Shown here: in pieces, positions 1-29,113 of the stretch | Position numbering within the stretch: the stretch's first letter is position 1 | Layout: every line of letters starts with the position of its first letter | Source of the DNA: a virus | Lineage: Duplodnaviria > Caudoviricetes | Direction: 5' to 3' (one strand) | IMG/VR virus record: IMGVR_UViG_3300011437_000308 | Span: 1 to 29,501 of that record | Length of the DNA: 29,501 nt | Notes under the pieces: model-generated | Seen by the model: the letters and a program-made list of their open reading frames with translations, nothing else | What the model was told of the DNA's origin: nothing | Databases searched by the model: none | Made by a program: the position numbers and the translations under genes

Positions 1-182
1 ACGTACAACGCGAGCCCAATGAGGAGCCCCGGCCACAGCCACGGATAGGCCATACACCACAGCCCCGTAAGGATCATGCCCAACAGATCCCAGATAAAGA
101 AATTCCTGGATACCCCTGCGATCAGTTGTGGCTGTGTGAGGCTCTGGTACAGTGGGGCCGAAAAACCGGGGATGTCACTCAT
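1..182 (-). CDS. trbD: Type IV secretion protein TrbD/VirB3 family (runs off the left edge)
   Basis: Not in the ORF track. Manual translation from ATG at 182 gives MSDIPGFSAPLYQSLTQPQLIAGVSRNFFIWDLLGMILTGLWCMAYPWLWPGLLIGLALY, matching the TrbD N-terminal pattern (IPGF..P.H.SLT.P.L..G..R) followed by hydrophobic segments. ATGA overlap with the pilin stop. Confidence 0.8.
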   Translation of the reverse strand, partial: MSDIPGFSAPLYQSLTQPQLIAGVSRNFFIWDLLGMILTGLWCMAYPWLWPGLLIGLALY

Positions 183-610
183 GCGCGCCCCCGCCGCGTG
201 AAGGGCAGGAGTACCCCGCCAAACAGCCAGGCCGCATACACCCCATGCCCGAGGAGTTCCCCTGCCAGGTCACTCAGGAATGTTGCGAGCGGCAGCCCGT
301 GCGCGACCACCACTGGCCACCCACCAGCCCCACCGCCAAAGAGTGTGACGGCCTTGGCTGCCCCCAGCGTCAGGCCGGTGCCAACGGCCGTGGTCATAAA
401 AACTTCTTTCCCGTGTTCATGGCCCATGCGATAGTTAATCCCCGCCCATGCCACGCCCACGGTACACGCGGACACCCCCGCTCCGCCAGTAATGCTACTC
501 GCCACCGTTTGCAAGGGGGATTCCCACGGCATTCCGGTAGATGCGAGGGCATAGCTTGCGAGGCCGGTGACTGCCAGCCCTGTGATCATTGCAATGTCTT
601 CCTTTGTCAC
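179..610 (-). CDS. trbC: Conjugative pilin, TrbC/VirB2 family
   Basis: Signal-like N-terminus ending ALA, then GMPWESPLQTVASSITG (typical TrbC MPWE.PL...SITG motif), two hydrophobic helices and a Gly-rich LFGGGAG. Lies directly upstream of trbD. Confidence 0.8.
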   Translation of the reverse strand: MTKEDIAMITGLAVTGLASYALASTGMPWESPLQTVASSITGGAGVSACTVGVAWAGINYRMGHEHGKEVFMTTAVGTGLTLGAAKAVTLFGGGAGGWPVVVAHGLPLATFLSDLAGELLGHGVYAAWLFGGVLLPFTRRGRA

Positions 611-1920
611 ATCGTACTCCTTGCGGCCCAGACCGCATTGTTCTTGTAGTAGGTCTTTGTCGCCAAGACCTTGTGCTGCCCCACGACCACGAGTGCCTGC
701 TCGCTCGGCAGATTCATGAGCGCAGTCGGCGAGAGCAGCGGCTCCTTCACTTTCTCTGTACTCCAGTTCCGTCCGATCTTGTGTTTCTTCTCCACCTCCG
801 TTTCGCCGACCCGTTGGCTAAAGGTTCTGGCTGCCGCATCATCCACGCTGAAGGCAATCTTGATCTCGCATCCATCAAAAAAAGGATGATGCTGTTGAAA
901 GGTGCGGATGACCTGCTCCATGCTTGCCGTGACCAACAGAAACCGCACGCCATACCCCGCCGCATAGGTCAGGCCATCGCTCACGGCGGTGATGCGATCT
1001 AGCAGCGGAAACTCATCGAGCAGCACCGCTAACTTCCATCTCCAGCCCTCCAGGTGTTGCGTGGCGTAATCAAGCAGTTGCCGTACCACGATGCGTGTCC
1101 AGGGTTTCACCCGCTCCCGATCACTCGGGGGAATCGTCAGGTAGAGACTCAGTGGCCTGGCCCGTTCCCGTAGATCCCGAAGCGTAAAGTCACTTGTGTC
1201 GGTGGCCCGTGCGATAAGCGGATCGGTATACAGGCGCAGTGCCCGGCTCAGGGTGGTGAGAATTCCACCTTTCTCGCCTTGCGGTCCGGCCTGGCGGAGC
1301 GCCCAGGCCGCGCGGTGAATTGCTGGATGGGGATAGTCGTGCATGGTCTTGAGGAGTCGATCAATATCCGTACTCACCAGGAGGCTATCGAGTGCCCCGA
1401 GCGACCGCGCCCGCTGGGTATACAACCCGTAGAGGACCAGTCCCACAAACCCCTCCGCCGCAAGGCCCGTGAAATGGCGCCCGGTATCACTCATGTGGTC
1501 CGTGCCTTTCTGCTCCACGTCGGTGATGCCCTCGGCAATCATCTGGGCCGCCCGGATTTCCCCCTCCTCCCCAATGGGAATCGCATCCAGTACGTTATAC
1601 CGCTGCGACAGCGAGGACGTAGGCGAGAGGCGCACGACTCGGGAGAATGTGCTGCGCCAGCCTGCGGAGAGGGGATGCAATTCGTCTTTTGGGTCCACCA
1701 CGAGAAAACTCTCCCGCCAGGTCAACAGGTTAGGCAGCACGAAGCAGGTGCTCTTGCCCTTGCGTGTCCCTGCCACGAGTAAGAGATGTGCCGGCCCGTT
1801 GTGGCGCAGCAGGCGCCGGCCCACGCGCCCCAGGATGAGCCCTTCGTCGGCAAAGAGGCCGGCCTTCCGCAGTTGGCGGGGGGTGCTCCACTGGGCGTGC
1901 GTCGACAGTGAGCCCCCCAT
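607..1920 (-). CDS. virD4: Type IV coupling protein, VirD4/TraG family (no N-terminal TM anchor from the likely start)
   Basis: HAQW..LRKAGL, Walker A AGTRKGKS, LPNLLTW, VVDPKDE, SDFTLRDLR, Walker B LLDEFP, AGYGVRFLLV, PLLSPTALMNLP. Likely start ATG 1920 (MGGSLS); the track start at 2010 overlaps the upstream gene. Confidence 0.88.
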   Translation of the reverse strand: MGGSLSTHAQWSTPRQLRKAGLFADEGLILGRVGRRLLRHNGPAHLLLVAGTRKGKSTCFVLPNLLTWRESFLVVDPKDELHPLSAGWRSTFSRVVRLSPTSSLSQRYNVLDAIPIGEEGEIRAAQMIAEGITDVEQKGTDHMSDTGRHFTGLAAEGFVGLVLYGLYTQRARSLGALDSLLVSTDIDRLLKTMHDYPHPAIHRAAWALRQAGPQGEKGGILTTLSRALRLYTDPLIARATDTSDFTLRDLRERARPLSLYLTIPPSDRERVKPWTRIVVRQLLDYATQHLEGWRWKLAVLLDEFPLLDRITAVSDGLTYAAGYGVRFLLVTASMEQVIRTFQQHHPFFDGCEIKIAFSVDDAAARTFSQRVGETEVEKKHKIGRNWSTEKVKEPLLSPTALMNLPSEQALVVVGQHKVLATKTYYKNNAVWAARSTM

Positions 1921-1922
1921 GA

Positions 1923-2144
1923 TCAGTACCCCCAATACCACAGGCGCGTCGCCCAATAGTGGACAAGATAGGCACTTGTGAGTGCGCACCCTTTCTTCCA
2001 TATCTCCCACAACCCAGGCACCATTTCCTCGCTGCCGGTGATCACCAATACCGACAGACCAAAAAGCAGCATGAGTGCCATCAGCCCTCCATGTGCGATG
2101 CGGTGTACTATCGGGATTCCTTCGAGATACTCAGAGTAATCCAT
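1923..2144 (-). CDS. Small membrane protein (73 aa, about two hydrophobic segments)
   Basis: MDYSEYLEG...LMALMLLFGLSVLVITG...LWYWGY; AAGGA RBS upstream; stop 2 nt before the virD4 ATG. Confidence 0.6.
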   Translation of the reverse strand: MDYSEYLEGIPIVHRIAHGGLMALMLLFGLSVLVITGSEEMVPGLWEIWKKGCALTSAYLVHYWATRLWYWGY

Positions 2145-2483
2145 TCTAAAACCGTCCTTTCGTTTGACGTTCCGCCGCTTGCACGCGGGCGACCATCTGT
2201 TCATGGCCCTGCTCCGCCTCGCGCCAGGTCTCATACCTGTCCTGTTCCTGATCACATACTCCTCCAAACACCATCGTCTCAAACAAGGCAACCGGCTGAT
2301 CGCCATACGAGACAGCCATTCCAAGAAAGACCGTACTGATGCGGATACCTGGCGTGACCCATGTCTCCGCCACGCGGCGGTTCGCAGTTTCGAACCATCG
2401 CGCCCATACGAAGACGTTTGCTTCACGCACAGGGATTGTTCCATCAAGGACATAGTGGTCCGACATCCTAAAACCGTCCTTTC
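2142..2483. repeat. Direct repeat of a gene-junction sequence (2142-2161 and 2464-2483)
   Basis: cat-N-ctaaaaccgtcctttc occurs twice (16 bp exact, 19/20 including the start codon); both upstream ORFs end KGRF*. Confidence 0.85.
2146..2466 (-). CDS. Conserved phage-type hypothetical protein
   Basis: ISTVFLG...LFETMVFGG..DQEQDRYETWREAEQGH resembles a recurrent small phage protein family (from memory); RBS and tight packing. Confidence 0.7.
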   Translation of the reverse strand: MSDHYVLDGTIPVREANVFVWARWFETANRRVAETWVTPGIRISTVFLGMAVSYGDQPVALFETMVFGGVCDQEQDRYETWREAEQGHEQMVARVQAAERQTKGRF

Positions 2484-2806
2484 TGTTTCGCAGGTTCCAT
2501 CCGTGAAAAGCCCGGTGGCAACATCCCACCGGGCACCCATCGCACAGTTCCCCAGCACAGCCCCCACCCGAGCACGAGTGCCATGCCCACGGCAGCGGGC
2601 GTGTACCACCATGGTCGCGTGACTGGCACGGGCGCCTTCAGTCGGTCCACCGCATCCGCTACGTCCTCCAGCCGCCGCGCCACCCCGGCAATGTCGGGCA
2701 CCGCGCGTTGCTCCAAGTGCGTGAGGATTTCGCCGTGATGGGTCAGCATCGCGCCCAGGTCATCGAGCGCCTCATTGATCGCCGTGAGGTCAGTAGCTGC
2801 GGCCAT
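2468..2806 (-). CDS. Coiled-coil protein with C-terminal TM segment (possible mobilisation accessory)
   Basis: MAAATDLTAINEALDDL..., hydrophobic AAVGMALVLGWGLCWG; overlaps the upstream stop. Confidence 0.6.
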   Translation of the reverse strand: MAAATDLTAINEALDDLGAMLTHHGEILTHLEQRAVPDIAGVARRLEDVADAVDRLKAPVPVTRPWWYTPAAVGMALVLGWGLCWGTVRWVPGGMLPPGFSRMEPAKQKGRF

Positions 2807-3392
2807 AGCCGTGCTCCTGTTGGGGCTGCTGTTTAGCCGCGAGTCGCTTGGCGATGCGGTCTTGTGCCCCAGAAAGCCTGCCCTCACTCCTGTGCTCTCG
2901 CCACTCCCCCAGCCCGTCGTATCCGATGTTCCGGCCCCACCCTGGAGACATCACCTCTCGCTCGATCTCGACGGGATCACCGTTGATCAGTGTTTCTTCT
3001 GGTGTGAGTGGCGGATAGATTTCTATTACAGGCTCTGGGTTGATGGCGCCATGCGTCTGTATCCATGCCACAAACTCTGGAGAAAGGTTCTCGGGGTCGA
3101 GTTCAGCTACGGTGCGCGATAAGGGCGTATTGAGAAATTCCTTCTCCTTCGCGTTGTAGTCGTCCCATAATTTGTCGTATACCACCGGATCATCGCCGTA
3201 TCCCATAGGTTCGGGACGCAAGCCGCTAAGCTCCTTGTCGCGGAGGTATTGCTGAAAGAGAGGAGCGTTGTCTACCTCCACGGCCCACTGCGCATTCTCA
3301 CGGATCTCCGCTGTCGTCTGCCGAAACGTCTCGACAGTGCGCTGCATCGCCGTTTTGGCTTCTTCAGCGTCCATAGCCTGTCCCTCGCTCAT
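2790..3392 (-). CDS. Hypothetical acidic protein downstream of the relaxase
   Basis: 200-aa ORF with protein-like composition, GAGGAG RBS, overlap with the relaxase end; C-terminus QEHGYGRSY resembles relaxase-type tails. Confidence 0.65.
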   Translation of the reverse strand: MSEGQAMDAEEAKTAMQRTVETFRQTTAEIRENAQWAVEVDNAPLFQQYLRDKELSGLRPEPMGYGDDPVVYDKLWDDYNAKEKEFLNTPLSRTVAELDPENLSPEFVAWIQTHGAINPEPVIEIYPPLTPEETLINGDPVEIEREVMSPGWGRNIGYDGLGEWREHRSEGRLSGAQDRIAKRLAAKQQPQQEHGYGRSY

Positions 3393-4491
3393 GTCCCCAC
3401 TCCTCTTCGCGTAAGTTCGCCCGCAACCCGGCCCCCACGCCCTCCGGTTCCCGGCGCGGCATGCGTGGGAGGTGCAGCGTGTGTTGTCGCCGGGTCAGGA
3501 TGCGCAGCTCCGTCTCTAGTGCCCGCCGCTCCGTCTCTCGAAGCGCCTGCACCCGCGTCGCCCGCTGTTGCCGCTGGGCCTGGGGGGAAGGGGAGCCCGG
3601 TGCCCACTGCCCCGGCTGGGTCCCGCGTGCCCGCGCCCGACTCTCGGCAAGAAATTGTGCGGGCGGGATCTGGGACACGTCGGTCATCCCGAGCCTGGCC
3701 TTCCGCAGTTCCCATCCCTCGGCTGCCAGGGCCTGCTCTTTCGCGGCATCGCGTGCCTGGCGGATACGGTCTCGCTCCGCCATGCCCCCAGGGTCCCTGC
3801 CAGGGCCCACCTTGGGCTCGGGCGGGCGGTCGATGTTGCGCGTATAGAGACTGCTGGGGTGGATACGGGCGGTCTCGCCTGCGCGTTCCAGGGTGTAGTT
3901 GGTCCAGTCGCACCAGGCCGCCCGTACCTCGAACACTGTAGACCGTTGTTTGAACCAGGGGTCCTTTTGGCATCCGCCCCGCTCCGGCTGTGATGGGTTA
4001 TACCGTTTGAAATAATGTGCCGGGGTCTGCCGTTCGATGCTATCGTGGCTGCGCTCGCTGAAGAGGACATGGATGTGGGGCTGATGTGCTCCCTCTGCCG
4101 TGATGGGGTCATGCATCACCCAGAGATACGCTTTGTTTCTCAGGTGCGTTGCCAAGAAGTCTCGCGCCAAGGCCAATTGCTCCTCCTGTGGCAATTCCTT
4201 GGGAAGTGCGAGTTGCCAGGTCGTCCCCCACCGCCCGTTGGCTTGCTCATACTGCTCGGCGTGTGCAAAGAAGGTAGCCGTACTCCCCTTGGCCCAGGCC
4301 GGGAGGTTGGCTGTCTCCTGATGTACCAGATCATCCCGCTCTGCTGTGGCCGCTGAGGTCCGGGTGAGATAGTCCACCCCGGCTTGCTTGGGCGCATACT
4401 GGCCATCGCGCGTGATATAGTTGATGACCCGCGTTGCCCCGCGCCCGCCTTGTACCTTGAGATGGTTGACGTGAAATCTGACCACTGCCAC
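3364..4491 (-). CDS. mobA: MobA/MobL family (MOBQ) relaxase
   Basis: Catalytic Tyr in NYITRDGQY, NLPAWA, FFAHAEQYEQANGR, ALPKEL, HUH motif HDP...QPHIHVLFSER, YFKRYNPSQPERGG, RAAWCDWTNYTLERAG..ARIHPSSL. Confidence 0.93.
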   Translation of the reverse strand: MAVVRFHVNHLKVQGGRGATRVINYITRDGQYAPKQAGVDYLTRTSAATAERDDLVHQETANLPAWAKGSTATFFAHAEQYEQANGRWGTTWQLALPKELPQEEQLALARDFLATHLRNKAYLWVMHDPITAEGAHQPHIHVLFSERSHDSIERQTPAHYFKRYNPSQPERGGCQKDPWFKQRSTVFEVRAAWCDWTNYTLERAGETARIHPSSLYTRNIDRPPEPKVGPGRDPGGMAERDRIRQARDAAKEQALAAEGWELRKARLGMTDVSQIPPAQFLAESRARARGTQPGQWAPGSPSPQAQRQQRATRVQALRETERRALETELRILTRRQHTLHLPRMPRREPEGVGAGLRANLREEEWGHERGTGYGR

Positions 4492-4508
4492 TCATATCCC
4501 CTACGAGA

Positions 4509-4542
4509 ACCTTCGTCATCGACGAAGGTGTTAGCGCGCTTG
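4509..4542 (+). other. oriT: Putative MOBQ oriT (predicted nic between 4538 and 4539 on the + strand)
   Basis: Perfect 9-bp inverted repeat ACCTTCGTC-ATC-GACGAAGGT followed by G-TTAGCGCG^CTTG, similar to the RSF1010/R1162 IR + TAAGTGCG^CCCT; immediately upstream of mobA in the RSF1010-like orientation. Confidence 0.65.
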
Positions 4543-4544
4543 TC

Positions 4545-4817
4545 TCACTTTCCCGCTTTTCCCTCACCCGTTTCCACCGCCGCCGCTTCGAGTCCAAGAT
4601 CCCGTGCCGCACGCCAACACATCGCGGCGATTTGCACGAGTTCTCCCCTCACCACACGGGGGTCACGGTCCGCCTGTTTCTTCCGTACCTCGCCCCACAG
4701 TTCATCCACTTCTTCGAGGATGACGGCATACGCCTCATGGAGGGAATGCATCGGCGGATGGAGCTGCACTGCTCGCACTACCTCATTGCATAGATCATGG
4801 AGAAAGTCGTGCGTCAT
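4545..4817 (-). CDS. MazG-like (all-alpha NTP pyrophosphatase fold) phage protein
   Basis: SLHEAYAVILEEVDELW...ELVQIAAM; ATGA-coupled to the upstream gene. Confidence 0.65.
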   Translation of the reverse strand: MTHDFLHDLCNEVVRAVQLHPPMHSLHEAYAVILEEVDELWGEVRKKQADRDPRVVRGELVQIAAMCWRAARDLGLEAAAVETGEGKAGK

Positions 4818-4999
4818 TCGAAGGTCTCCCCTAGATATTTCTCCGCCATCTGTCGCACGATGGCCCACTGTTTTGGACTGAGCGAGTACGGGCGATGCTT
4901 GAGGAGGTCCTCGATGAACCGCGCTTCCCAATCGCTGACCTCCTGCGCCCCCGCGTCAATGGCTTCTACATAGGCAAGGTAATCGTCAGGCATCGGCAC
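4814..4999 (-). CDS. Small phage-type hypothetical protein
   Basis: SDWEARFIEDL...LSPKQWAIV motif; coupled at both ends. Confidence 0.65.
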   Translation of the reverse strand: MPMPDDYLAYVEAIDAGAQEVSDWEARFIEDLLKHRPYSLSPKQWAIVRQMAEKYLGETFE

Positions 5000-5324
5000 G
5001 CTCCTCTGTCAGCCGACACATGTGCAGCAGCCGTGGACGGATGGCAGTCTCCGCGGGATCATCGGCGGCATCGAACAGGGCATGCATCGCCCCAACAGAG
5101 AGGCGTTGCTGGAGGGCCGCCTCCCTGGCCCATGAGCGAGCGTAGTACGTCCCTGAGTCGAGGGTGGCCTGCGCACTCACCGGGCACAACCGCCCTTGGT
5201 ATGCCCAGGCGCCTCCGCCACTGATCGATACGAGGTAGCCCTCCCGCGTCACCGTCCAGACAAACACCGTTCCGGCGCCTGCCGCAAACCGCGTCAACCA
5301 CTGCTCGACCTCGGGCGTCAGCAT
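4986..5324 (-). CDS. Hypothetical protein
   Basis: Likely start MLTPEVEQW at 5324 with AAGGAGAGG RBS; overlaps neighbours. Confidence 0.55.
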   Translation of the reverse strand: MLTPEVEQWLTRFAAGAGTVFVWTVTREGYLVSISGGGAWAYQGRLCPVSAQATLDSGTYYARSWAREAALQQRLSVGAMHALFDAADDPAETAIRPRLLHMCRLTEERADA

Positions 5325-5527
5325 GCGGCCTCTCCTTGCGCGATGTGCGCCTGTGCCCGGCGCACCGGCTCTTGCCAGGTGCCCATGTTGAGGCGCACGA
5401 CGGTGGCGGACGGGAGCCCCTCCGTTCGCACAAAATCTTTTTCCTTGGGCCATTTCCCTTCGCGGCGATGAAACTCCAGCACGGCCTCTATGATGCGGGT
5501 ATCCGTCCAAAACCGTTCAGCCGACAT
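5318..5527 (-). CDS. Homing-endonuclease-associated repeat (HNH_repeat-like) small DNA-binding protein
   Basis: WTDTRIIEAVLEFHRREGKWP...LPSATVVRLNMGTW matches the WT.E.II.....G..P....LPS......FGSW repeat. Confidence 0.65.
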   Translation of the reverse strand: MSAERFWTDTRIIEAVLEFHRREGKWPKEKDFVRTEGLPSATVVRLNMGTWQEPVRRAQAHIAQGEAAC

Positions 5528-5858
5528 CGGGCGGCTCCTCTGTCTCTGTGGGCACGCGCCCCTTGCGTTTGGCTTCGCGGAGCCCGAGCTTGAGCACCGC
5601 TTCGAGTTCCCCCAGGTCACAGACGTATTCCCCCCCCGCATGATCGCAGGTGAAGAGCCCCACGGACGCCACCACGTGGGCAATCTGTACGCAGGTGGCT
5701 TGGTAGTCACGCCGGGCGAGCTGCCGCAGCTTCTGCTCGGTGGACCGTAGTTGTGCTTTTTTGTCCTCCAGCAACTTACGAAGCTGGCCCTTCTTGTCCA
5801 GCGGTGCGTCCTCGCCGCTGGCGTGTGGTAGGTCGTCTCGCTCTTTAGGTGCGGCCAT
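5517..5858 (-). CDS. Coiled-coil protein, possibly TraD/MobS-like relaxosome accessory
   Basis: Basic coiled coil followed by RRDYQATCVQIAHVVASVGL, loosely like TraD RK.RTR.LIQLGGLV.KAGL; near a MOBQ relaxase. Confidence 0.45.
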   Translation of the reverse strand: MAAPKERDDLPHASGEDAPLDKKGQLRKLLEDKKAQLRSTEQKLRQLARRDYQATCVQIAHVVASVGLFTCDHAGGEYVCDLGELEAVLKLGLREAKRKGRVPTETEEPPDVG

Positions 5859-6120
5859 GCGTCCCTCCCCCGTGCTGGTGGTGTAAGGTGCCACAGTGGA
5901 CAATCGCTGTTTTGATCTGACGATAGAGCCGGGTCGGAAGCGTATGCGGATCACCAGCGGCGTGGGCCGCGAGAAGGATCGCGTCAATCGCGCCCTGCCC
6001 GGCCTCGCGGAGTTCGTGATAGGTGACATCCCCGCAGTAGCGCGGGTAGTAGTGGCGGGCAAGATGCTCACGCATCTGCACCACCTGACGAGGGGTCAAA
6101 CCTGGTATACTTCCAGCCAT
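5845..6120 (-). CDS. Hypothetical protein
   Basis: 91-aa ORF with GGAGG RBS; overlaps the next gene. Confidence 0.6.
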   Translation of the reverse strand: MAGSIPGLTPRQVVQMREHLARHYYPRYCGDVTYHELREAGQGAIDAILLAAHAAGDPHTLPTRLYRQIKTAIVHCGTLHHQHGGGTHGRT

Positions 6121-6157
6121 GGGACACCTCCCTTGGAACAGAAGGGGGGAGACTCAT

Positions 6158-6187
6158 GGAGGGGCGAACCGCACTCCTCGCCCCTCC
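6158..6187. other. Intergenic hairpin (10-bp stem)
   Basis: GGAGGGGCGA-N10-TCGCCCCTCC, with no U-tract. Confidence 0.6.
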
Positions 6188-6342
6188 GACGTACACTCTC
6201 ATCATCACACTACTGGACGACGGACACCCCCTATACGGCCAACCTCACATTGGGGTGATAGAGCGTGCGCTCCATCTAAGAAAGAGCAGCTAGGGTGCCC
6301 GTCGTCACACCTCATGACTCCTCGCCTCGCTGCGTCGCAAAC

Positions 6343-6642
6343 TCATAGAGCGCCCTCCCCTCGTGCCTGCGCCGCGCCCCTCCGCCCCGGCCTGGACTGG
6401 TCCATGAGCCCCGCCACCCCCTGCGCGAGAAACCGGCGCACCCATTTGTACACAAAGCGCCGGCTAATCCCCACCGTACGGGCCGTGGCACTCACCGACG
6501 CTCCGGCATCGAGCAGCAGCACGATCTGCCCCCGGCGCACCCGGCCCACTGGCATGCTCGGCGAGCGTTGCCAGTGCTCCAGCGTCTGGCGGTCCTGGGC
6601 GGTGAGGGAAACCTGGACCTCGGTGGTGCGTCCTCGGGCCAT
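6343..6642 (-). CDS. Stand-alone IS630-type helix-turn-helix protein
   Basis: LTAQDRQTLEHWQRS...RRGQIVLLLDAG.SVSATARTVGISRRFVYKWVRRF..QGVAGLMDQSRPGR; no DDE domain follows; TGATG-coupled to recT. Confidence 0.8.
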   Translation of the reverse strand: MARGRTTEVQVSLTAQDRQTLEHWQRSPSMPVGRVRRGQIVLLLDAGASVSATARTVGISRRFVYKWVRRFLAQGVAGLMDQSRPGRRGAAQARGEGAL

Positions 6643-7628
6643 CAGTCCTCCTCCCCGGCCTCGCGGGCCGCGCGCTCTTCCTCGTCAAACAGATTGCGCT
6701 CAGGGGACACCCAGGACGCTGTTCCGTCCCCCACGTCGGGGATATCGTCATCGGGGGGCTGTGCCTCTGCTGGGCGATCCTGGGTGGGACTCGGGGTATG
6801 CCCTATCGATGGCGTCATGATTACCGGAGGCCCGTAGAGTTCTTCGCTGAGCGTAGCCAGGGGCAGATGCCCTGCGAATCGTGGGGCAGCCCGTCGCGTG
6901 ATCGTCGCCTCCTCGCGGGACTGGTATAGCCCTTCTTCCGTCCGTAACGCCTCTGTGATATCCGCATCAAGAGAGAGATGCCTGGGGGAACACAGTTGTC
7001 GTAGGCAGGTTTTAAGAGCCATCTTATCAAAGTTTGTCAGGCCCTCTTTATCCGCATGGTTGTCGGCCCAAAAGGTACTCTTGGCACTTGCCGCATAGCG
7101 ATCCCGATGGCCCGCCACTTCTGCCTTGCTCATACTCACTACCCGCCAGAATCCCGACCGTAGATACGCCGCGGCGTAGTAGCCAATCGTCCGTCCTCGT
7201 GGCGCAAAACTTTCGGGCAGCCGATGGATTGGTAGCGACACGGGGCTCTCGGCCGGATGGTAGGTATCATTCTGACAGACCGCAGCCGTGAAAACATCGA
7301 CCACCTCAGGATTGCGAAGGACGAGTTTGCGCAACCCGCCATAGCCGACAATGAGAGAGGCTTCCTGTTTGTACGGCACAAGAAAACACTCGTTTGGTAC
7401 GGACGGATCGAGCCCTAGCCGTGCCATCCGCACCAGCGCATCTAGGATGCTCTCCTTGCTACAGGCTGCCAGTTGCGGGACCTTGCGGAATTGGTTGAGC
7501 GCAATAATCAAAAAGCGGTCGGCGACCTCTGCGCTGCCCATCAGGCGCCTGATGTGTGCCGGGGCCAGGGCAAACGCTTCGTCGAGGGGCGACTTCTTCT
7601 GGACGGCGGTGGATGCAGGCATGGACAT
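6642..7628 (-). CDS. recT: RecT family single-strand annealing protein
   Basis: PQLAACSKESILDALVRMARLGLDP, ECFLVPY, LIVGYGGLRKLV, GYYAAA, FDKMALKTCLRQL, acidic tail. Confidence 0.92.
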   Translation of the reverse strand: MSMPASTAVQKKSPLDEAFALAPAHIRRLMGSAEVADRFLIIALNQFRKVPQLAACSKESILDALVRMARLGLDPSVPNECFLVPYKQEASLIVGYGGLRKLVLRNPEVVDVFTAAVCQNDTYHPAESPVSLPIHRLPESFAPRGRTIGYYAAAYLRSGFWRVVSMSKAEVAGHRDRYAASAKSTFWADNHADKEGLTNFDKMALKTCLRQLCSPRHLSLDADITEALRTEEGLYQSREEATITRRAAPRFAGHLPLATLSEELYGPPVIMTPSIGHTPSPTQDRPAEAQPPDDDIPDVGDGTASWVSPERNLFDEEERAAREAGEED

Positions 7629-7664
7629 TTCTCCTTAGCATTGAGTGGGGCAATTCGCGTATAC

Positions 7665-7713
7665 TGTACAGCATTTTGCGGCACTCATCATTTCCCAGAG
7701 TGTACAGCATTTT
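7665..7713. promoter_or_regulatory. 13-bp direct repeats in the recT / RHH divergent promoter region
   Basis: TGTACAGCATTTT at 7665-7677 and 7701-7713; extended -10 TGGTAAAAT on the minus strand overlaps the second copy. Confidence 0.65.
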
Positions 7714-7738
7714 ACCATACACGACAACAGGAAAATAC

Positions 7739-7885
7739 GTGGAACCAAAACAGTCTACGACGGTGCGCCTTACGGCAGAGGCACGGCGCCTGCTGCGCTT
7801 GCTTTCCTCAACCCAAGGGGTATCACAAACCGCCATTATTGAAACCCTCCTCCGCCGCGAAGCCAGACGCCTCGGGCTGAAGTAG
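7739..7885 (+). CDS. Ribbon-helix-helix (CopG-like) regulator
   Basis: GTG start: VEPKQSTTVRLTAEARRLLRLLSSTQGVSQTAIIETLLRREARRLGLK, a classic RHH strand-helix-G.S-helix pattern. Confidence 0.75.
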   Translation: MEPKQSTTVRLTAEARRLLRLLSSTQGVSQTAIIETLLRREARRLGLK

Positions 7886-7911
7886 CGCCGTGCCGCGTGG
7901 GGCCGTGCCCC

Positions 7912-8244
7912 TTAGAACGGCTCCTCCTCGTCCACCTCTCCCCACCCCCGGTCATCCTCCTCCGCCCGCTCGGGCAGTTGCCGGGGGATGTCCACCGTCA
8001 CCGGCTCGGGCCGGATCGCTCGGAGGGCCGCCCGTGCCAGCTCCTCAGTGACCAGGGTGAGGCTATAAATGGCACTCACGCCGACAAAGCGGGTATAGGC
8101 AGGCATCTCCCCTTCCTCGGGGATATCGACCCGGAAGAGGGCCGACCCGCCGATGTGGACCGTAGAGAGGTAGCCAGACAGTTTATTATGCTCTAGCATA
8201 TCTATAATGGCCCATCCTTCAATGACCGTCTGGCTGTCACTCAT
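7912..8244 (-). CDS. Conserved phage hypothetical protein
   Basis: WAIIDMLEH..LSGY...IGGSALFRVDIP....YTRFVGVSAIYSL; AAGGAGG RBS. Confidence 0.7.
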   Translation of the reverse strand: MSDSQTVIEGWAIIDMLEHNKLSGYLSTVHIGGSALFRVDIPEEGEMPAYTRFVGVSAIYSLTLVTEELARAALRAIRPEPVTVDIPRQLPERAEEDDRGWGEVDEEEPF

Positions 8245-8419
8245 GGTCCGCCTCCTTCGTTGCACAGTGGTGCTCGACGCCCAGGCACGCGCTCACCAGC
8301 GTCCCACCCTTCCCCCGCATGAGCAACGCCCGGCAGCGCCAGCACGCCGCAATAAAGGTGGGCTGCGGGGGGGCATACACCGCCTGCGGATCACGTGGTT
8401 CACGGTATTTTGCCATCAT
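8237..8419 (-). CDS. Small Cys-containing hypothetical protein
   Basis: 60-aa ORF with CWRC; RBS and overlap with the next gene. Confidence 0.5.
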   Translation of the reverse strand: MMAKYREPRDPQAVYAPPQPTFIAACWRCRALLMRGKGGTLVSACLGVEHHCATKEADHE

Positions 8420-8533
8420 ACCCCTTTCTCGGTACCCACGAGTGTCAGGAAGGCACGTTCGCCCTCCAAGACGTACTTTATCACTCTAGACACTCACGAT
8501 TGATTCTAGGGCCACCCTCGACGGTTATTTGGC

Positions 8534-9214
8534 CTATCCACTGATTTCCTGGGGAATGGCCGGCCGGGGCAACGTAATCGGCTGCCCATCCCCGCGGAGC
8601 AGGTTGCCAGTTGAGACAATCTGCTCAAACAGCCGGCGCGTTTTCTCGACATCCCCCGCACAGTAATTCAGCACCTCGGCAATCCGCCCCGCCCGCCACA
8701 GCCGGGGGGCCATGGCCCCGTCCATCGCTTTCTCGCCATACCCATTGGCGACGGAGATGGCCCCGAGACTATTCAGCCCGCGCTCAAACTTGCGCACCGG
8801 GTCTGCGGACCATACGGCGTCTAAAATATCGTAGCCCCGCCCCATGAGGTCCTGAAAGGCATCGCAAAGCTGGTACAGGGACTCATCACGATTGCGGAGG
8901 ATCGCTTGCAATAATGGCCCGTCGAAACGGAGGGAATTGAAACCGACCATCAAGGGTTGCTCTGCCACCCAGCGCGTGATGATCTGTTCGAGTGCCGACG
9001 TGTCAAACCACTCTACGGACATCCTGCGATACGAAAAAGCACATCCAATACTCAGCCCTAGTGCCAATGGGTTGTTCCAGCCGATAGGCTCATAGTCGTG
9101 CGTCTTTCCTGTCTCGCCCGCATGGCACTCAGGTGAACCAGCACAGTAGAGGCAGGCATCTGCGCTATGGGCAGTCTCGATGTCGAATATATACACATTG
9201 GCGCATCTAAGCAT
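8534..9214 (-). CDS. DEDD 3'-5' exonuclease (RNase H-like)
   Basis: Exo I FDIET, Exo II GFNSLRFDGPLL, SLGAIS..NG, Exo III YCAGDV. Start 9214 has an AAGGA RBS; the frame stays open upstream to 9457. Confidence 0.85.
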   Translation of the reverse strand: MLRCANVYIFDIETAHSADACLYCAGSPECHAGETGKTHDYEPIGWNNPLALGLSIGCAFSYRRMSVEWFDTSALEQIITRWVAEQPLMVGFNSLRFDGPLLQAILRNRDESLYQLCDAFQDLMGRGYDILDAVWSADPVRKFERGLNSLGAISVANGYGEKAMDGAMAPRLWRAGRIAEVLNYCAGDVEKTRRLFEQIVSTGNLLRGDGQPITLPRPAIPQEISG

Positions 9215-20294: not shown

Positions 20295-20792
20295 TCAGGT
20301 GCCTTCCCTGAGCTGGCCGATGAGCGCCTCAGTGATGACGCCATCCGTCTCCCAGCCATCCACATCCTGCGCCGTCACTTTGATCCGCAGTGGCGTGTTT
20401 GGGTCGGCGCATCCCAGGCCAGGAATCCTCACCAGCTCCTCGCGGGCCTGACCGCCTCGCCCGTCTGTACTACTATACAGTTTTGGATGTCCTGTCGTAT
20501 CGAGGGCCGGGGTCCAGGCAGCGCAGCGGCTGCCCACGCACCAGTAGACCCGAATCCCTTTGAGATTTTTCTTGGGGGCATAGGGTTCCGTGTAGTTCAG
20601 GGTTGCGGCGAGGTCGGCGCACCCGGGTGCCCTACTCCATCCTGGGTCGTGTAGGACGGCGCCTGCCCCCGTCGTCCCCCTGCGCGTGCTCGGTGAGATG
20701 ATGGGCAAAGATGCCCAGATACCGAGCACGCAGAGCAGGACGCCTCCACTCCACCACAGATAGTCTTTCCGTCGCAGATCCGTGTTGGGCAT
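20295..20792 (-). CDS. Membrane-anchored hypothetical protein
   Basis: N-terminal TM WWSGGVLLCVLGIWASLPII; AAGGAG RBS. Confidence 0.65.
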   Translation of the reverse strand: MPNTDLRRKDYLWWSGGVLLCVLGIWASLPIISPSTRRGTTGAGAVLHDPGWSRAPGCADLAATLNYTEPYAPKKNLKGIRVYWCVGSRCAAWTPALDTTGHPKLYSSTDGRGGQAREELVRIPGLGCADPNTPLRIKVTAQDVDGWETDGVITEALIGQLREGT

Positions 20793-20834
20793 TCTTTGCT
20801 CCTTCGTGGGGCTCCGTAGAGCCCCGGTGGGCGT

Positions 20835-21149
20835 TTAGGGTTCCAGTGTAATTGTCCATTCAAGCCCAAGCTTCTTGGCACAGTCTGGGCCGATAAAGAA
20901 CCACAGCATGTCGCCTTCATCGGAGGTATACAACGCCTCATCCTTGGGGTGGAGGAATGATAAGCCGCCGTCTATGAGGTGGACCATGCGTTGCTGGCGG
21001 CTTCGTCTGAGTGGCTTGTTGCACATGCAGCAGCACTGATCATCCGTGCCGCTGTGTGGAGTGGTTTGTATGTAGGGCTTAGTCGTGTAGCCTTGCGATA
21101 CGTCCTGGACATCATTCCATGCTGCCTGGATGGCCTTGCCTTCTAGCAT
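20835..21149 (-). CDS. Hypothetical phage protein with Cys motifs
   Basis: CCCMCNKPL...FFIGPDCAKKL; flanked by motif copies. Confidence 0.7.
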   Translation of the reverse strand: MLEGKAIQAAWNDVQDVSQGYTTKPYIQTTPHSGTDDQCCCMCNKPLRRSRQQRMVHLIDGGLSFLHPKDEALYTSDEGDMLWFFIGPDCAKKLGLEWTITLEP

Positions 21150-21194
21150 TTCATTTCCTTCGTGGGGCGCCGACGAGCCCCTGTGGTGTGGTTA

Positions 21195-21420
21195 CTACGG
21201 CTCCACGTGGCGATGTACGCGCCACGCGAGAAAAATGGCCTCCTCTCTGGTGAGGAATTTACACCATTCGGCATGCCAGGTGCCCATGAGGGCCTGGGCA
21301 TTCTCGATGGCGTTGGTCTGCCCGCTGGTCGTGTTGAATGCTATCGGGGCATAGACACTGCGTGCACAGCCCCCCGTCAAAGGTATGCTCGCAGGGGGAA
21401 TCGTCGAGTCTCCTGACCAT
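21195..21420 (-). pseudogene. Small gene, apparently split across two frames
   Basis: The RBS-linked ATG at 21420 stops at 21259, while the frame ending at 21195 abuts the next junction motif. Confidence 0.4.
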
Positions 21421-21461
21421 CTTTCTCTCCTTTGTGGGGCTCCGCAGAGCCCCAGTGGTGC

Positions 21462-22135: not shown

Positions 22136-22179
22136 GGTTTGTTCCTTTCGTGAGGGGGAGCCGCAGCTCCCCGGTGGTG

Positions 22180-24608: not shown

Positions 24609-24733
24609 CTCCCCAAGCGCATTTTTCCCCTGGTGGGAGAGATGCGCGTTGTTGTGTGGCATGCCGGGCTGAAAAAGTGCGCTGCGTTCCCTGGTGTCGC
24701 TGGCGGGCATCAGGGAGCAGGATGCAGGAGTCT

Positions 24734-25150
24734 ATGACTGCCGGCCACCTCTTCTCTACGATTATTCACCCCAAAAAGCGTGCGGTCCTTGCGGCGTATG
24801 CGACGAGCGGTCGCCTCGTCCATGCCTGCAAAAGTGCCAAGACCGATGCCTTTATGCACTACTACTGGATGCGCACCGACCCTGCCTATGCGACGGCGTT
24901 TGCGGAAGCGCAAGAGGTGGTGGCGAATCTCCTGGAAGAGGAAGCGATCCGCCGGGCCACCAAAATGCAGCATGCCAGTGATGTGCTCCTCATCTTTCTT
25001 CTCAAAGGCGCGAAGCCCCAGAAGTACCGTGATAATGTGCACGTGCAGCAGGAAATAAGCGGCGAAGTCACCTTGACCTGGAGTGATCGTCTTAGCCGCG
25101 CCCATCTCGCGTTAGAGGAGCGCCGGAATGGCCACGCTCTGCCTGCCTGA
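24734..25150 (+). CDS. terS: Terminase small subunit
   Basis: HYYWMRTDPAYATAFAEA...LEEEAIRRA...SDVLLIFLLKGAKPQKYRD; overlaps terL. Confidence 0.85.
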   Translation: MTAGHLFSTIIHPKKRAVLAAYATSGRLVHACKSAKTDAFMHYYWMRTDPAYATAFAEAQEVVANLLEEEAIRRATKMQHASDVLLIFLLKGAKPQKYRDNVHVQQEISGEVTLTWSDRLSRAHLALEERRNGHALPA

Positions 25151-26606
25151 TGCCGATCTCCTCGAATTCGCGGCTTCCTGCGTGGATGATCCGCTGCGCT
25201 TCGTCCTGGCGGCCTTCCCCTGGGGCGAACCGGGCACGCTCCTGGCGCAGGAGACCGGGCCGGATACCTGGCAGGTGGAGGTGCTCGAAGAGATGCGCGT
25301 GCATATCCAGACCTCGACCGTGGCCTTCCGCAAGGCGGTCGCCTCGGGCCATGGCGTGGGCAAGTCCGCCCTCACCTCGTGGATTATCCTGTGGTTTCTC
25401 GCCACCCATCCCCACCCGCAAGCCGTGGTGACCGCGAACACGGGCACGCAGCTTAATACCAAGACCTGGCGCGAGCTGGCGAAGTGGCTCCAGCTCAGCA
25501 TCTATGCCGAGACGTTTGCCTGGACGGCGACCAAGTGTTATCACCGGGAGCACCCGGCGACCTGGTTTGTGGCGGCCGTGCCGTGGCGGGCGGATCGCCC
25601 GGAAGCGTTTGCCGGGACGCACGAGAAACACGTGCTGGTGATCAAAGACGAAGCGAGCGCGATTGACGATATTATCTGGGAGAACGTGGAGGGCGCGATG
25701 ACGACCCCCAGCGCGTTCTGGCTCGCGTTTGCCAACCCCACCCGCAACAGTGGCCGCTTCAAGGAGTGTTTCCCTGGGGGCCGCTTTGCGCATCGCTGGA
25801 GTACCACGCAGGTCGATAGCCGCACGGCCAAGATGGCCGACCAGGCCCAGATTACGCAGTGGATCACGGACTATGGTGAGGATAGTGACTTTGTGCGTGT
25901 CCGCGTCAAGGGGGAGTTCCCCCGCCAGGCCGTGGGGCAGTTCATCAGTGAGGCGGATGTGGACGCGGCGACGAAGCGCGAGGCGGTCGATGACCCGTTG
26001 GCCCCGACCATCATTGGCGTGGATGTGGCGCGGTTTGGGGATGATCGCAGCGTCATTCTGGTGCGCCGCGGGGGGCAGATTCTGGAGTGTACCCTGTACC
26101 GCGAACTCGATACCGTGCGCCTCAGTGGCTTTGTGTGCGAAGCGGTCGAGCGCTACCGCAGTCACCAGCCGACGCTGTGTGTCGATGGTGTCGGCGTGGG
26201 CGCGGGCGTGGTCGATGTGTGCCGGGCGCGCAACTACCGCGTGGAAGAAGTGCTGAACGGCGGGACGCCCCAGGACCCGGTGCACTATGAGAATATTCGG
26301 GCCGCATCGTGGGCGGGCCTGCGCACCTGGGTGCAGACGCGGGCCAGTCTCGACGCACAGGCCCCCTACATGCAGGAACTCCGCGCGGACCTGCTCGGGC
26401 CGGAGTACGGGTACGATGCGCAGAATCGGTTGCAACTGGAGCGGAAAGCGCACATGAAGGCGCGCGGCCTGGCTAGTCCTGATTGTGGGGATGCCCTAGC
26501 GCTCACGTTTGCCGTGCCGGTGGCCCCCAAGGGGATGCCCGCCGCGCCCGTGCGCCCGCTGCCTTCGGTGGGGGCGGTGCCCCGTGGCCAGAGCTGGTTG
26601 GCGTAA
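25128..26606 (+). CDS. terL: Terminase large subunit
   Basis: Walker A ASGHGVGKS, Walker B LVIKDEAS, ANPTRNSG, nuclease GVDVARFGDD, VDGVGVGAGV, SPDCGDALAL. Confidence 0.95.
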   Translation: MATLCLPDADLLEFAASCVDDPLRFVLAAFPWGEPGTLLAQETGPDTWQVEVLEEMRVHIQTSTVAFRKAVASGHGVGKSALTSWIILWFLATHPHPQAVVTANTGTQLNTKTWRELAKWLQLSIYAETFAWTATKCYHREHPATWFVAAVPWRADRPEAFAGTHEKHVLVIKDEASAIDDIIWENVEGAMTTPSAFWLAFANPTRNSGRFKECFPGGRFAHRWSTTQVDSRTAKMADQAQITQWITDYGEDSDFVRVRVKGEFPRQAVGQFISEADVDAATKREAVDDPLAPTIIGVDVARFGDDRSVILVRRGGQILECTLYRELDTVRLSGFVCEAVERYRSHQPTLCVDGVGVGAGVVDVCRARNYRVEEVLNGGTPQDPVHYENIRAASWAGLRTWVQTRASLDAQAPYMQELRADLLGPEYGYDAQNRLQLERKAHMKARGLASPDCGDALALTFAVPVAPKGMPAAPVRPLPSVGAVPRGQSWLA

Positions 26607-26858: not shown

Positions 26859-27012
26859 GCCCGCGTCCAGTTTTGAAGAACCGTTTCGCGTCTACCCCAC
26901 CAGCAGTGAGGTCATCGTGGTCTGCACCCAGGACGGCCATCGGTATACGCTGCGCTTTGATACGGCCGAGCAAGCGCTACTGACCGAGGCGCTAGGAGCC
27001 CTGAGTGGCTGA
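26842..27012 (+). CDS. Hypothetical protein (56 aa)
   Basis: Manual translation MRLQIEPASSFEEPFRVYPTSSEVIVVCTQDGHRYTLRFDTAEQALLTEALGALSG; GGAGG RBS; bridges to the portal gene. Confidence 0.55.
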   Translation: MRLQIEPASSFEEPFRVYPTSSEVIVVCTQDGHRYTLRFDTAEQALLTEALGALSG

Positions 27013-29113
27013 GTCTTTTGCCTTTGCGACCACGACCGCGCCCACGCAGGACCCCGACGCCGCGTCGGTGCAGTGGCCCTCGCAGGACGACGCGACCTTG
27101 CTCGCCACCGCGCAGACGCACTGGACGCAGGCGGAGCAGGCCGAAAGCGCCTGGCGGACGAAAGCGCGGAAAGACCAACAGTTCGAGGCGGGCGAACAGT
27201 GGCCGCCCGGCATTGTCGAGCAACGCGACCGGGACCGGCGCCCCTGCCTCACCATTGACCGGATGGGTACGCATTTGCGCCAGGTAGAGAACGAGGGGCG
27301 ACAGAGCCATCAAGGCATGGTGGTGAGTGCGGTGGACGATCAGGCGGACCCGGAGACGGCGAAGATCATGCGGGGGCAGATTCGGGACATTGAGCAGCAA
27401 AGTGGCGCCGACATGGCCTATACGTTTGCGCGGAAGAACGCCATCGGGCCGGGGCGGGGGTTTGTGCGGGTGCTGCCCGAATATATCGACCCGTTTAGTT
27501 TCAAGCAAGAGCTGCGCATTAAGCCGATTCGCAACCTGTTCAGTGTGTACCTGGACCCGGCGCACATCATGCCGGATGGCTCGGATACGAATTGGGCGTT
27601 CATTGTGAGTCGCATGGCGAAAGACGACTACGAGCGGACGTATCGGCGCTTGCCTGTCGAGGCCACGCATTGGGCGGCCGAAGGGGACACCTGGTTCAAC
27701 GGCAGCGAAGTGCAAGTGGCGGAATACTATTGGCGCGAGCAGCACCCGCTGGACATTGCCTTGCTTGAGGGGGGGCAGGTGTTCCCCGTGGATCGGGTGC
27801 CGGACGATCAGCGCGGCTTGATCGTGAAAACACGCACCACGCGCGTGCCCTATGTCTGGTGGGCCAAGATAAACGGCCATGAGGTGTTAGAGAAGACGCG
27901 CTGGCTCGGGCAGTATATTCCCATTGCGCAGTACGTGGGCGAAATCATGGACCAGGAAGGCGAAGTGGACTACCGGGGCATGACGCGCCGCTTGAAAGAC
28001 CCGCAACAGATGGCCAATTACTGGTTTACGGCCTTTACCGAGGGGGTGGCCCTCGCACCCAAGAACGCCTTTGTCGGCGCCTATGAACAGTTTCAGGGCT
28101 TTGAGGAGTACTGGAACGCCGCGAACACGAGTAACTATAGCTATCTGCCCTACAATCCAGCGCAAGTGGCGGGCACGGTCCTGCCCCCGCCGCAACGCTC
28201 CGCCGTGGAGCCTGCCGTGCAAGCCATGATGCAAGGCGTGGCCATGGCGGCCGACCACATCAACGCGATTAGCGGCTACCATGACCAGGTGCAGGACCAG
28301 GACCCCGCCATCAGTGGCGAGGCCATCAAGCGGCGCCAGCAGGGCACGAATAATGCGACGTATCATTTCCAGGATCACGAACGCTGGATGCTGCGCCATC
28401 TGGGCCGCATCATTGTCGATGCGATCCCGCACTACTACGATGAGGCGCAAACGATTCGCATTGTGGGCGACGATGAACAGGTGCGCCAGGTGCTCATCAA
28501 CCAACACCATGTGGACGAGGACGGCAAGGCGCAGCTCTACGACGTGACGGTGGGCCGCTACGATGTGCGCGTGGATGGTGGCCCCTCGTTTGCCACGAAG
28601 CGCCAGGACGCGGTGGATAAGCTGAGCCCGATCATGGGGAGTAGCGAGTGGTTGCAACATACCATCGGGGATATCTATTTCCGCTCGCTGGATGTGGACT
28701 TTGCCGAGCAAGCGGCGAATCGCCTCAAGAAGGCCATGCCGCCCGAGCTGCTGGCCGATGAGCCCGGTGCGGAGAAGTTTGCCAAGGCGCAGGAGCAAAT
28801 GCAGCTCGCCCAGAAAGCGCCCCTCCTGGAAGAGGAACTGAAGAAAGTCCAAGGCCAGATGATGCAGATGCAACAGAGCATGCAGAGTCTCACGATGGAC
28901 AACCAACAATTGCGGCTGGCGGTGCAGAATAAAGAGCGCGAACTGGCGCTCAAGCAGCAACTCGAAGAGCACAAGCTGGCGCTCCAGGCCCAGGAGCAGG
29001 CGCATGAGGCCCGCATGGCGGAGCTGGAGTTGCAGGTAGCGGAGTTCGAGGCGCGGACCGACCGGATGCAGGCCCTGCAGCCGCGGGCGACGAATGGCGC
29101 CCGCGAGGGCTAA
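27005..29113 (+). CDS. Portal protein, P22-like
   Basis: F.AGEQWP...RRPCLTIDR, GRGFVRV, VQVAEYYWRE, KDPQQMANYW, SGEAIKRRQQ, GRYDVRVDGGPSFATKRQ, C-terminal coiled-coil barrel. Confidence 0.93.
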   Translation: MAESFAFATTTAPTQDPDAASVQWPSQDDATLLATAQTHWTQAEQAESAWRTKARKDQQFEAGEQWPPGIVEQRDRDRRPCLTIDRMGTHLRQVENEGRQSHQGMVVSAVDDQADPETAKIMRGQIRDIEQQSGADMAYTFARKNAIGPGRGFVRVLPEYIDPFSFKQELRIKPIRNLFSVYLDPAHIMPDGSDTNWAFIVSRMAKDDYERTYRRLPVEATHWAAEGDTWFNGSEVQVAEYYWREQHPLDIALLEGGQVFPVDRVPDDQRGLIVKTRTTRVPYVWWAKINGHEVLEKTRWLGQYIPIAQYVGEIMDQEGEVDYRGMTRRLKDPQQMANYWFTAFTEGVALAPKNAFVGAYEQFQGFEEYWNAANTSNYSYLPYNPAQVAGTVLPPPQRSAVEPAVQAMMQGVAMAADHINAISGYHDQVQDQDPAISGEAIKRRQQGTNNATYHFQDHERWMLRHLGRIIVDAIPHYYDEAQTIRIVGDDEQVRQVLINQHHVDEDGKAQLYDVTVGRYDVRVDGGPSFATKRQDAVDKLSPIMGSSEWLQHTIGDIYFRSLDVDFAEQAANRLKKAMPPELLADEPGAEKFAKAQEQMQLAQKAPLLEEELKKVQGQMMQMQQSMQSLTMDNQQLRLAVQNKERELALKQQLEEHKLALQAQEQAHEARMAELELQVAEFEARTDRMQALQPRATNGAREG

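Follow-up and report, generated by a model that had tools for sequence, protein, structure and literature searches.

Conjugation genes in a lineage of P22-like phages: a resident module that may offer a second route of spread

Known combinations of phage and conjugation genes

Virion packaging and conjugation are treated as mutually exclusive modes of spread that define phages on one side and plasmids or integrative and conjugative elements (ICEs) on the other, and according to a 2025 review, neither phage-plasmids nor integrated prophages are known to be conjugative (PMC12282955). Here we analyze a 29.5-kb contig (29,501 nt; IMG/VR record IMGVR_UViG_3300011437_000308, hereafter the window) of a tailed phage known from freshwater-sediment DNA, together with a circular sister phage (G001) and a second, unrelated backbone (G002). 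The window holds P22-like head genes as well as a relaxase, a candidate origin of transfer (oriT) and part of a type IV secretion system (T4SS). We think the chances slightly better than even that it belongs to a P22-like phage lineage, probably of Candidatus Tectomicrobia, in which a conjugation module is resident and spread takes two routes, by virions and by conjugation.

Phage-ICE tandems and nests have been described in 612 cases and are stated not to be hybrid elements (PMC13651849). As in these, phage genes and a conjugation system lie here on one excisable DNA, and conjugation could carry the phage genome. However, the nests form by site-specific accretion of partners that keep distinct identities and an integrase each, whereas here there is one integrase, no boundary, a module coupled to the early genes and a position that is kept. 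Phage-plasmids of the P1 and N15 types (PMC12282955, PMC7969092, PMC10879196) also unite functions of plasmid type with virion genes in a single replicon, but their plasmid side consists of replication and partition, and the window and G001 lack ParA. T4SS domains are only sporadic in phage-plasmids (10.1101/2025.11.07.687105), and a single-cell preprint reports 51 viral operational taxonomic units with plasmid hallmarks that include T4SSs and relaxases (10.64898/2025.12.20.690322). The fused conjugative phage-plasmid p1002-1 (10.1101/2025.03.14.643293) likewise has conjugation and phage genes on one molecule, but it joins two whole replicons whose parents are identifiable, whereas here a replicon-less module of ~12 kb is common to several phages. 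Finally, the streptococcal "conjugative prophage" Phi1207.3, whose label is operational (PMC4260502, PMC5154133), is comparable as a prophage for which movement by cell contact was proposed; neither "relaxase" nor "type IV" occurs in the text of PMC4260502, while the sequences here encode a relaxase, an oriT, a coupling protein and a channel.

Among transfer systems, the P-type (MPF_T) Trb system of plasmid NZ_CP044976 (traG-copG-trbB-C-D-E-J-L-F-G-I) has homologous genes in nearly the same order, with TrbE 41 to 46% identical, but the phage module lacks trbB and copG, has trbI before trbG, encodes shortened TraG, TrbE and TrbG and is partnered with a MOBQ relaxase. The latter resembles the RSF1010 family (PMC4814116) in its MobA/MobL domain, its catalytic Tyr and three His, a hairpin followed 8 to 9 nt on by a GCG-ending nic site and a MobB-like neighbor; it differs in stem sequence and in its location, next to a channel of its own in a phage instead of on a small mobilizable plasmid. 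The element is thus neither a nested ICE (it has no integrase or att site of its own), nor a phage-plasmid (no partition), nor a canonical MPF_T system (VirB11 and the VirD4 anchor are missing), and would work like a self-conducting phage-ICE. No description of this lineage was found in the literature searched, whose coverage excluded most subscription journals, and the sequences point to a real, conserved and selected phage-resident conjugation module that is apparently undescribed.

A conjugation module among phage early genes

Profile scans of the window proteins found both gene sets, phage and conjugation, in the single contig. They bore out the gene list of an earlier sequence-only reading (P22-like terS, terL and portal, cro/cI, integrase, initiator with iterons, MOBQ relaxase, oriT candidate, VirD4, TrbC and TrbD), which had overlooked the MobB-like and TraD-like genes. 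The conjugation side comprises the following features (ORF, open reading frame; HTH, helix-turn-helix).

1 to 182, minus strand: 5' part of trbD/virB3, cut by the window edge (PF05101, E value 9e-4, under the cutoff)
179 to 610, minus: trbC/virB2 pilin gene (PF04956, 1e-13)
607 to 1920, minus: VirD4/TraG coupling ATPase, 437 aa (PF02534, 7e-53), Walker A/B intact, without an N-terminal membrane anchor by hydropathy
1923 to 2144, minus: 73-aa hydrophobic ORF, absent from G001 and G002
2146 to 2466, minus: 106-aa ORF, present in G001, absent from locus L094 and G002
2468 to 2806, minus: MobB-like relaxosome accessory with a hydrophobic C-terminal half, a lead only (ESM Atlas 0.86 to the IncQ MobB cluster, PF17511)
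2790 to 3392, minus: 200-aa variable ORF separating mobA from the mobB-like gene
3364 to 4491, minus: MOBQ-type (MobA/MobL) relaxase (PF03389, 1.5e-20; NF041496, 4e-17, below the cutoff)
4509 to 4545, plus: candidate oriT, a 9-bp inverted repeat (4509 to 4517 and 4521 to 4529, by folding) followed by an RSF1010-like nic region
4545 to 5527, minus: four small ORFs of phage type, lying between the TraD-like gene and oriT (4545 to 4817, a PHROG of unknown function; 5318 to 5527, a weak HNH_repeat)
5517 to 5858, minus: TraD (PF06412)-like accessory gene, a lead only, upstream of mobA in five of five elements aligned
6343 to 6642, minus: HTH protein, with a 56% homologue upstream of mobA in G002

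The relaxase has intact catalytic residues (Tyr25 and the three-His motif His127/139/141), and the Walker A/B motifs of VirD4 and of the large terminase TerL are intact as well. The VirD4 start lies most likely at 1920, a form that is present in the protein collection and that corrects an earlier start. As for the two accessory leads, the MobB-like protein is 82% identical to that of G001 and 42% to that of G002, and PF06412 was matched by a single one of the five aligned TraD-like homologues (that of L098, E value 0.0018, below the cutoff).

The minus strand carries all 16 of the genes called from recT leftward to the edge, and 13 of their 15 junctions overlap or leave at most 2 nt (the count entered the HNH_repeat ORF, one of the 16, with a slightly wrong start), in agreement with what had been read from the sequence; the exceptions are a 222-nt gap (6121 to 6342) and the 53-nt oriT gap. 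The interleaving of phage-type small genes with the conjugation genes is also real, since four of them sit between oriT and the TraD-like gene. Of the names given to them, "MazG-like" fell away, as that gene matches only PHROGs of unknown function and nothing in Pfam, and HNH_repeat is weak (E value 0.019). The GC profile of the window shows no step at the module, and a promoter scan of positions 1 to 9000 returned no sites. The ORF at 2146 to 2466 is bracketed by a direct repeat of ~20 bp (2141 to 2165 and 2461 to 2487) that spans ribosome-binding site and stop/start, and looks like a removable cassette within the module.

The module in a circular sister phage and in a second backbone

G001 (58,743 bp) is circular by a 123-bp terminal repeat. 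It is a different phage, with 81% DNA identity to the window over terS to portal and a primase/helicase-type replication gene in place of the initiator; protein identities are 96% for TerL, 86% for the portal, 66% for MobA, 57% for VirD4, 55% for TrbC (dN/dS 0.18) and 62% for TrbD. Its plan is that of the window, a head operon followed by integrase-cI-cro, early genes and then the conjugation module, in the order mobA, mobB-like, virD4, an HNH gene, trbC, D, E, J, L, F, I and G, which converges on the late-gene end. P22-like head, ejection and tail-fibre-like genes are present. Relatives that link homologous TerL and portal to a MOBQ relaxase and VirD4 had been proposed as a check, as had circularity, and G001 supplies both. 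In this genome an HNH endonuclease gene (L001:13352-14029) occupies, between virD4 and trbC, the site of copG-trbB in plasmid systems.

The same module in the same order was found in G002, a linear sequence of 59,585 bp with another TerL family, ParB and an SNF2 helicase. Its trbE (L156:8834-12082) encodes a VirB4 with a Hint/LAGLIDADG intein inside the Walker A motif. G002 has virion-type proteins in common with G001: Big_7/beta-helix proteins, 47 to 60% identical over long stretches, and a virion-type protein of ~385 aa (L086:5844-10160; L157:7628-9517, 14155-18498).

The claim of a single element, not an ICE beside a phage, held: the layout is kept in circular G001 with one integrase and no flanking repeats, and the remaining T4SS genes are found beyond the left end of the window (see below). 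The only PF00589 match of G001, its tyrosine integrase, is in the immunity region ~10 kb from mobA, and neither a resolvase (PF00239) nor ParA was found there; the partition ATPase PF13614 was absent from the window, G001 and G002, the last of which has a ParB-like gene. The longest exact direct repeat flanking the module is 13 nt in G001, and none of 12 nt exists in G002, in keeping with the lack of an att site or boundary noted before. GC content at third codon positions overlaps in G001 (0.71 to 0.81 in the module, 0.78 to 0.81 in head genes).

These observations bear on a nested or tandem arrangement (ICE::Phage), in which an ICE or plasmid inserted into a prophage would keep its own identity. 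Such nests are described (PMC13651849), and two findings agree with one here: the module occurs in two unrelated phage backbones (G001-type and G002), and its divergence between window and G001 exceeds that of terL (synonymous divergence dS of 0.8 to 2.1 vs 0.57), a difference that speaks against a single element. We nevertheless give this explanation little credence, given the missing second integrase, resolvase and boundary repeats, the coupling of module genes to phage early genes, the unchanged position in phages with head genes that are 0.6 to 1.0 apart in dS, and the absence of any close-clade MobA from 185,579 representative prokaryote genomes (GTDB scan, six loci, best 35%). Because the module has diverged more than terL and is present in two backbones, it appears to move between phages, most plausibly by recombination; that the HNH genes adjoining it in G001 and G002 assist this movement is speculation.

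Contiguity of the window and its continuation

Seven of the 16 listed sequencing runs held at least half of the sampled words of positions 1 to 9000, and all seven are freshwater-sediment or groundwater metagenomes. In run X1, an assembly separate from that of the window though maybe of its source sample, a 23,725-bp unitig (depth 14.8) covers positions 1 to 9346 with zero differences and a 36,669-bp unitig (depth 15.5) covers 9544 to 20000. The sole break in the graph over positions 1 to 20000 is the 117-bp repeat at 9269 to 9582. Depth is even across this break, and a misassembly between mobA and recT, named beforehand as a finding that would refute the claim, did not show, as one unitig runs unbroken from recT through mobA. 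Aligned to G001 at 80% likeness, the unitig (taken as the same 23,725-bp unitig by its equal length and depth) is colinear on through trbE, trbJ, trbL, trbF, trbI and trbG into the late-gene end, which places the remaining T4SS genes left of the window. No joint or high-depth loose end that would mark an att site or host junction was seen over 1 to 20000 in four runs (X1 to X4). At position 10778 the window has T and all four runs have C; this base may be an assembly error.

For the exact MobA, VirD4, TrbC, MobB-like, TerL and portal proteins of the window, as well as for the VirB4 P0121 (full length, 90% identical to that of G001), the longest contig listed is 62,219 bp, which we read as one assembly of the whole genome. 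The best reading is that the window is part of a phage of ~60 to 62 kb.

A misassembly was rejected on unitig continuity and even depth in X1, the same linkage in circular G001 and the shared 62,219-bp contig. To an artifact, or to a T4SS that now serves protein export or exclusion next to a vestigial relaxase, we give hardly any credence: the repeat does break the X1 graph between module and head genes, and runs X1 to X4 may be the window's own source, but depth is even across the break, the same linkage stands in a phage with 81% DNA identity over terS to portal, and relaxase motifs and the oriT stem are conserved.

A predicted origin of transfer

The oriT is predicted in cis from its sequence and covariation. 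A GCG-ending site lies 9 nt past the stem, with the nick predicted between 4538 and 4539; this spacing matches that of the RSF1010 substrate, which has a 10-bp stem plus 8 nt (PMC4814116). Between the window and G001, four of the nine stem pairs have changed on both sides, and all still pair. Across eight sequences (seven distinct), 84% of cells pair as compared to 37 to 51% in slid controls, with double changes at six of nine stem pairs; the eight were picked by eye from 19 upstream regions with a structure derived from the window, and three of them are plasmid-like distant relatives. A nick at 4538/4539 would send the early, replication and immunity genes ahead and leave the transfer genes for the end, the order known from plasmids (background in PMC12282955).

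Channel genes and selection

The lack of VirB4 in a decayed T4SS, named in advance as fatal to the claim, did not appear: a full-length VirB4 and a Trb operon were found. G001 holds VirB2, B3, B5, B6, B8, B9 and B10 homologues, with a weak TrbJ match (E value 0.005) and a shortened TrbG. The VirD4 and VirB4 ATPases have their Walker motifs. The conjugation genes are under purifying selection, with nonsynonymous-to-synonymous ratios (dN/dS, Nei-Gojobori) of 0.07 to 0.31 in 13 of 13 comparisons. For the channel operon of G001 vs G002 the range is 0.12 to 0.25, with open frames and kept order. The ORF at 2146 to 2466 gave 0.37, and among phage genes values were 0.06 for terL, 0.14 for the portal, 0.07 for the coat and 0.37 for the integrase. 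Five values in this analysis come with dS above 1.9 and are near saturation.

Host and distribution

In a quick VirB4 tree of 60 rows, the two phage proteins fell in a 15-row subclade (support 99) inside a 25-row clade (support 100), apart from proteobacterial TrbE. Long contigs of 34, 44, 56, 68, 94, 118, 124 and 152 kb carry members of this MobA/VirB4 clade. MobA (65%) and VirB4 (55%) have their sole named close homologues in metagenome-assembled genomes of Candidatus Tectomicrobia, which makes this group the likely host. The large proteins shared by G001 and G002 despite unrelated terminases suggest a host in common.

IMG/VR scans returned one locus for MobA (G001), none for VirD4 and two for VirB4 (G001 and G002). 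A metagenome scan gave 60 loci, of which the close ones (45 to 74%) beyond the window and G001 records were four contigs of 2.5 to 4 kb. In a cultured-phage collection of 50,697 records, VirB4 was matched by four and VirD4 by seven, the latter including PP438431 (a 20-kb Synechococcus phage record, 25%) and MT835580 (a 55-kb unannotated gut phage record, 32%). None of 24 TerL-relative loci had VirD4 (the longer records of 80 TerL loci, in a scan covering 20 of 64 parts); these 24 are distant, and a P22 coat match was found in two of them only, so that no usable relative with an empty site emerged. Ten relatives of the late-end gene are unrelated phages without VirB4, and G005, G032 and G004 are fragments that end before the module.

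The phage side of the window

Beyond the module, the window has the following features.

6642 to 7628, minus: RecT annealing protein (PF03837, 1.6e-29)
9269 to 9582: 117-bp direct repeat, 85% (copies 9269 to 9385 and 9466 to 9582)
10626 to 11945, minus: DNA methyltransferase (PF01555, 6e-9)
12248 to 13231, minus: phage replication initiator (phrog_270, 1e-24), with internal iterons at 12763 to 12840 (repeat family D5)
17819 to 18576: divergent cro (17819 to 18052, minus) and cI (to 18576, plus), by HTH_3 matches
18792 to 19673, plus: tyrosine recombinase, 293 aa, the sole one in the window
24656 to 25150, plus: terminase small subunit (phrog_4044, 5e-16)
25128 to 26606, plus: terminase large subunit (phrog_2, 1e-33), 96% identical to that of G001
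27005 to 29113, plus: P22-like portal (PF16510, 7e-136)

An exonuclease gene is also among the phage-side genes, and the 117-bp duplication turns a 55-aa ORF (9457 to 9624) into a near copy of the exonuclease N terminus. The N terminus of a VRR-NUC gene is a 68-nt two-copy repeat with a period of 81 (15282 to 15430). From cI/cro and the tyrosine recombinase, the phage is likely temperate. Directly 3' of the integrase, a small PDZ-domain protein with a lipoprotein-like N terminus (19709 to 20179, plus) is possibly a membrane protein expressed in the lysogen. A GC hairpin beside a ribosome-binding-like stretch occurs in four copies (20790 to 20830, 21146 to 21186, 21418 to 21458 and 22155 to 22177), each upstream of a small minus-strand gene, with a related stretch in G001 near 14257 to 14493; the four units are possibly a host-takeover gene cassette with repeated control units.

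Past the portal, the overlapping assemblies L002 and L171 give scaffold, coat, head-closure and ejection genes, so that the rightward extension proposed as a check by the sequence-only reading reached capsid genes, with tail-fibre-like genes in G001. The coat gene is frameshifted in assembly G004 and intact in G032, the other assembly of the same phage (L171).

Weighing a self-sufficient channel and a packaged genome

Several observations weigh against a phage that both conjugates by itself and fills virions. The linkage of head genes to the module is direct in two phage genomes only; no coat, portal or integrase was recognizable in G002, which for that reason is probably part of a larger phage. 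The host assignment depends on two named homologues. The oriT hairpin is broken in G002, and no such site was found in L097 or in L099-type loci. No VirB11/TrbB was found in G001 or G002, although ~1.35 kb 3' of trbG in the window phage is unread and could hold one; in the nearest plasmid system, trbB sits between traG and trbC. VirD4 lacks, relative to its plasmid homologue, ~109 N-terminal (membrane; residues 1 to 109 of plasmid TraG) and ~115 C-terminal residues, and no hydrophobic VirD4 N terminus exists in the window, G001 or G002. TrbE in G001 lacks ~70 internal residues, and TrbG (VirB9) ends ~125 residues short at its C terminus vs the plasmid homologue. The C-terminal domain of VirB9 helps to form the outer-membrane cap. 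No endolysin was recognized in G001, where small membrane ORFs stand at the end of the late operon. As to head size, the nearest cultured phages with this coat (29 to 37% identity) measure 33 to 40 kb, and weaker matches 51 to 87 kb.

The channel defects would fit a mobilizable phage, in which relaxase and oriT work but the channel is unable to transfer DNA alone, so that VirB11 or an entire T4SS has to come from the host or from a co-resident element. The missing VirB11, the anchor-less VirD4 and the shortened VirB9 agree with this, as do the MOBQ relatives in PLSDB, mostly on mobilizable plasmids (1306 of 1967 records). Most Gram-negative T4SSs need VirB11, though F does not (PMC12857230), and VirB11 is rare outside MPF_T (PMC4027160); for the coupling protein of pIP501, TraI has been proposed as an anchor (PMC12857230). 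Yet the whole channel operon is kept in order and in open frames under the selection given above for G001 vs G002, and identical truncations in the two fit redesign better than decay; we regard helper dependence as unlikely, if well worth keeping in view. That G001 and G002 both have shortened VirD4 and TrbG, and that purifying selection acts on these genes, suggests a channel redesigned rather than decayed, though not necessarily self-sufficient.

Head size raises another alternative, a phage on its way to becoming a conjugative element, which with ~12 kb added would have outgrown its head, spread by mating and packaged partial genomes. The 33 to 40 kb of the nearest cultured coat relatives, the longest contigs of 42 to 44 kb listed for three portal relatives (52 to 53%), the coat frameshift in G004 and the described conversion of P1-like phage-plasmids to mobilizable plasmids (PMC10879196) are in line with it, but terL, portal and coat show dN/dS of 0.06 to 0.14, the coat is intact in the other assembly of the same phage (L171), and the weaker coat matches include phages of 51 to 87 kb. 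We hold this course of events to be improbable and prefer a lineage in which a genome of ~60 kb would be packaged in virions.

A possible double route of spread

From the linkage, conservation, intact motifs, selection and stem covariation observed here, we infer a phage that may spread by both routes, with nicking, transfer, packaging, lysogeny and host as its predicted parts. The phage would be present as a circle, as the terminal repeats show for G001 and as is presumed for the window phage. MobA, with the TraD-like and MobB-like helpers, would then nick the plus strand at 4538/4539 beside the hairpin, to judge from the RSF1010 likeness and covariation. VirD4, which has no anchor and probably depends on a small partner to stay at the membrane, would feed the strand into a reduced Trb channel (TrbC, D, E, J, L, F, I and G) that might work without VirB11 or borrow an ATPase, the weakest step of the scheme. 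First to enter would be the DNA to the right of 4539 (recT, exonuclease, methyltransferase, initiator, cro/cI/integrase), with the transfer genes at the end. Once in the recipient, the genome would re-circularize and either establish itself under cI or go lytic, the late operon then presumably packaging it into podovirus particles.

Slightly short of even, in our estimate, are the chances of a more far-reaching version: a family of truly conjugative Tectomicrobia-associated phages with podovirus particles and their own redesigned minimal T4SS (no VirB11, a soluble VirD4 with a separate membrane partner, a shortened VirB9), an oriT placed so that early and immunity genes go first, and a module swapped between unrelated phages like a tail-fibre cassette.

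A double route by virion and mating has not yet been shown for a phage. If true, such a phage could reach cells that are resistant or lack the receptor while the donor survives, and two different machines would determine its host range. Virus and plasmid classifiers would split or discard genomes of this kind. The module is compact (~12 kb), and the conserved lack of both VirB11 and a VirD4 anchor has a bearing on the minimal needs of a Gram-negative T4SS.

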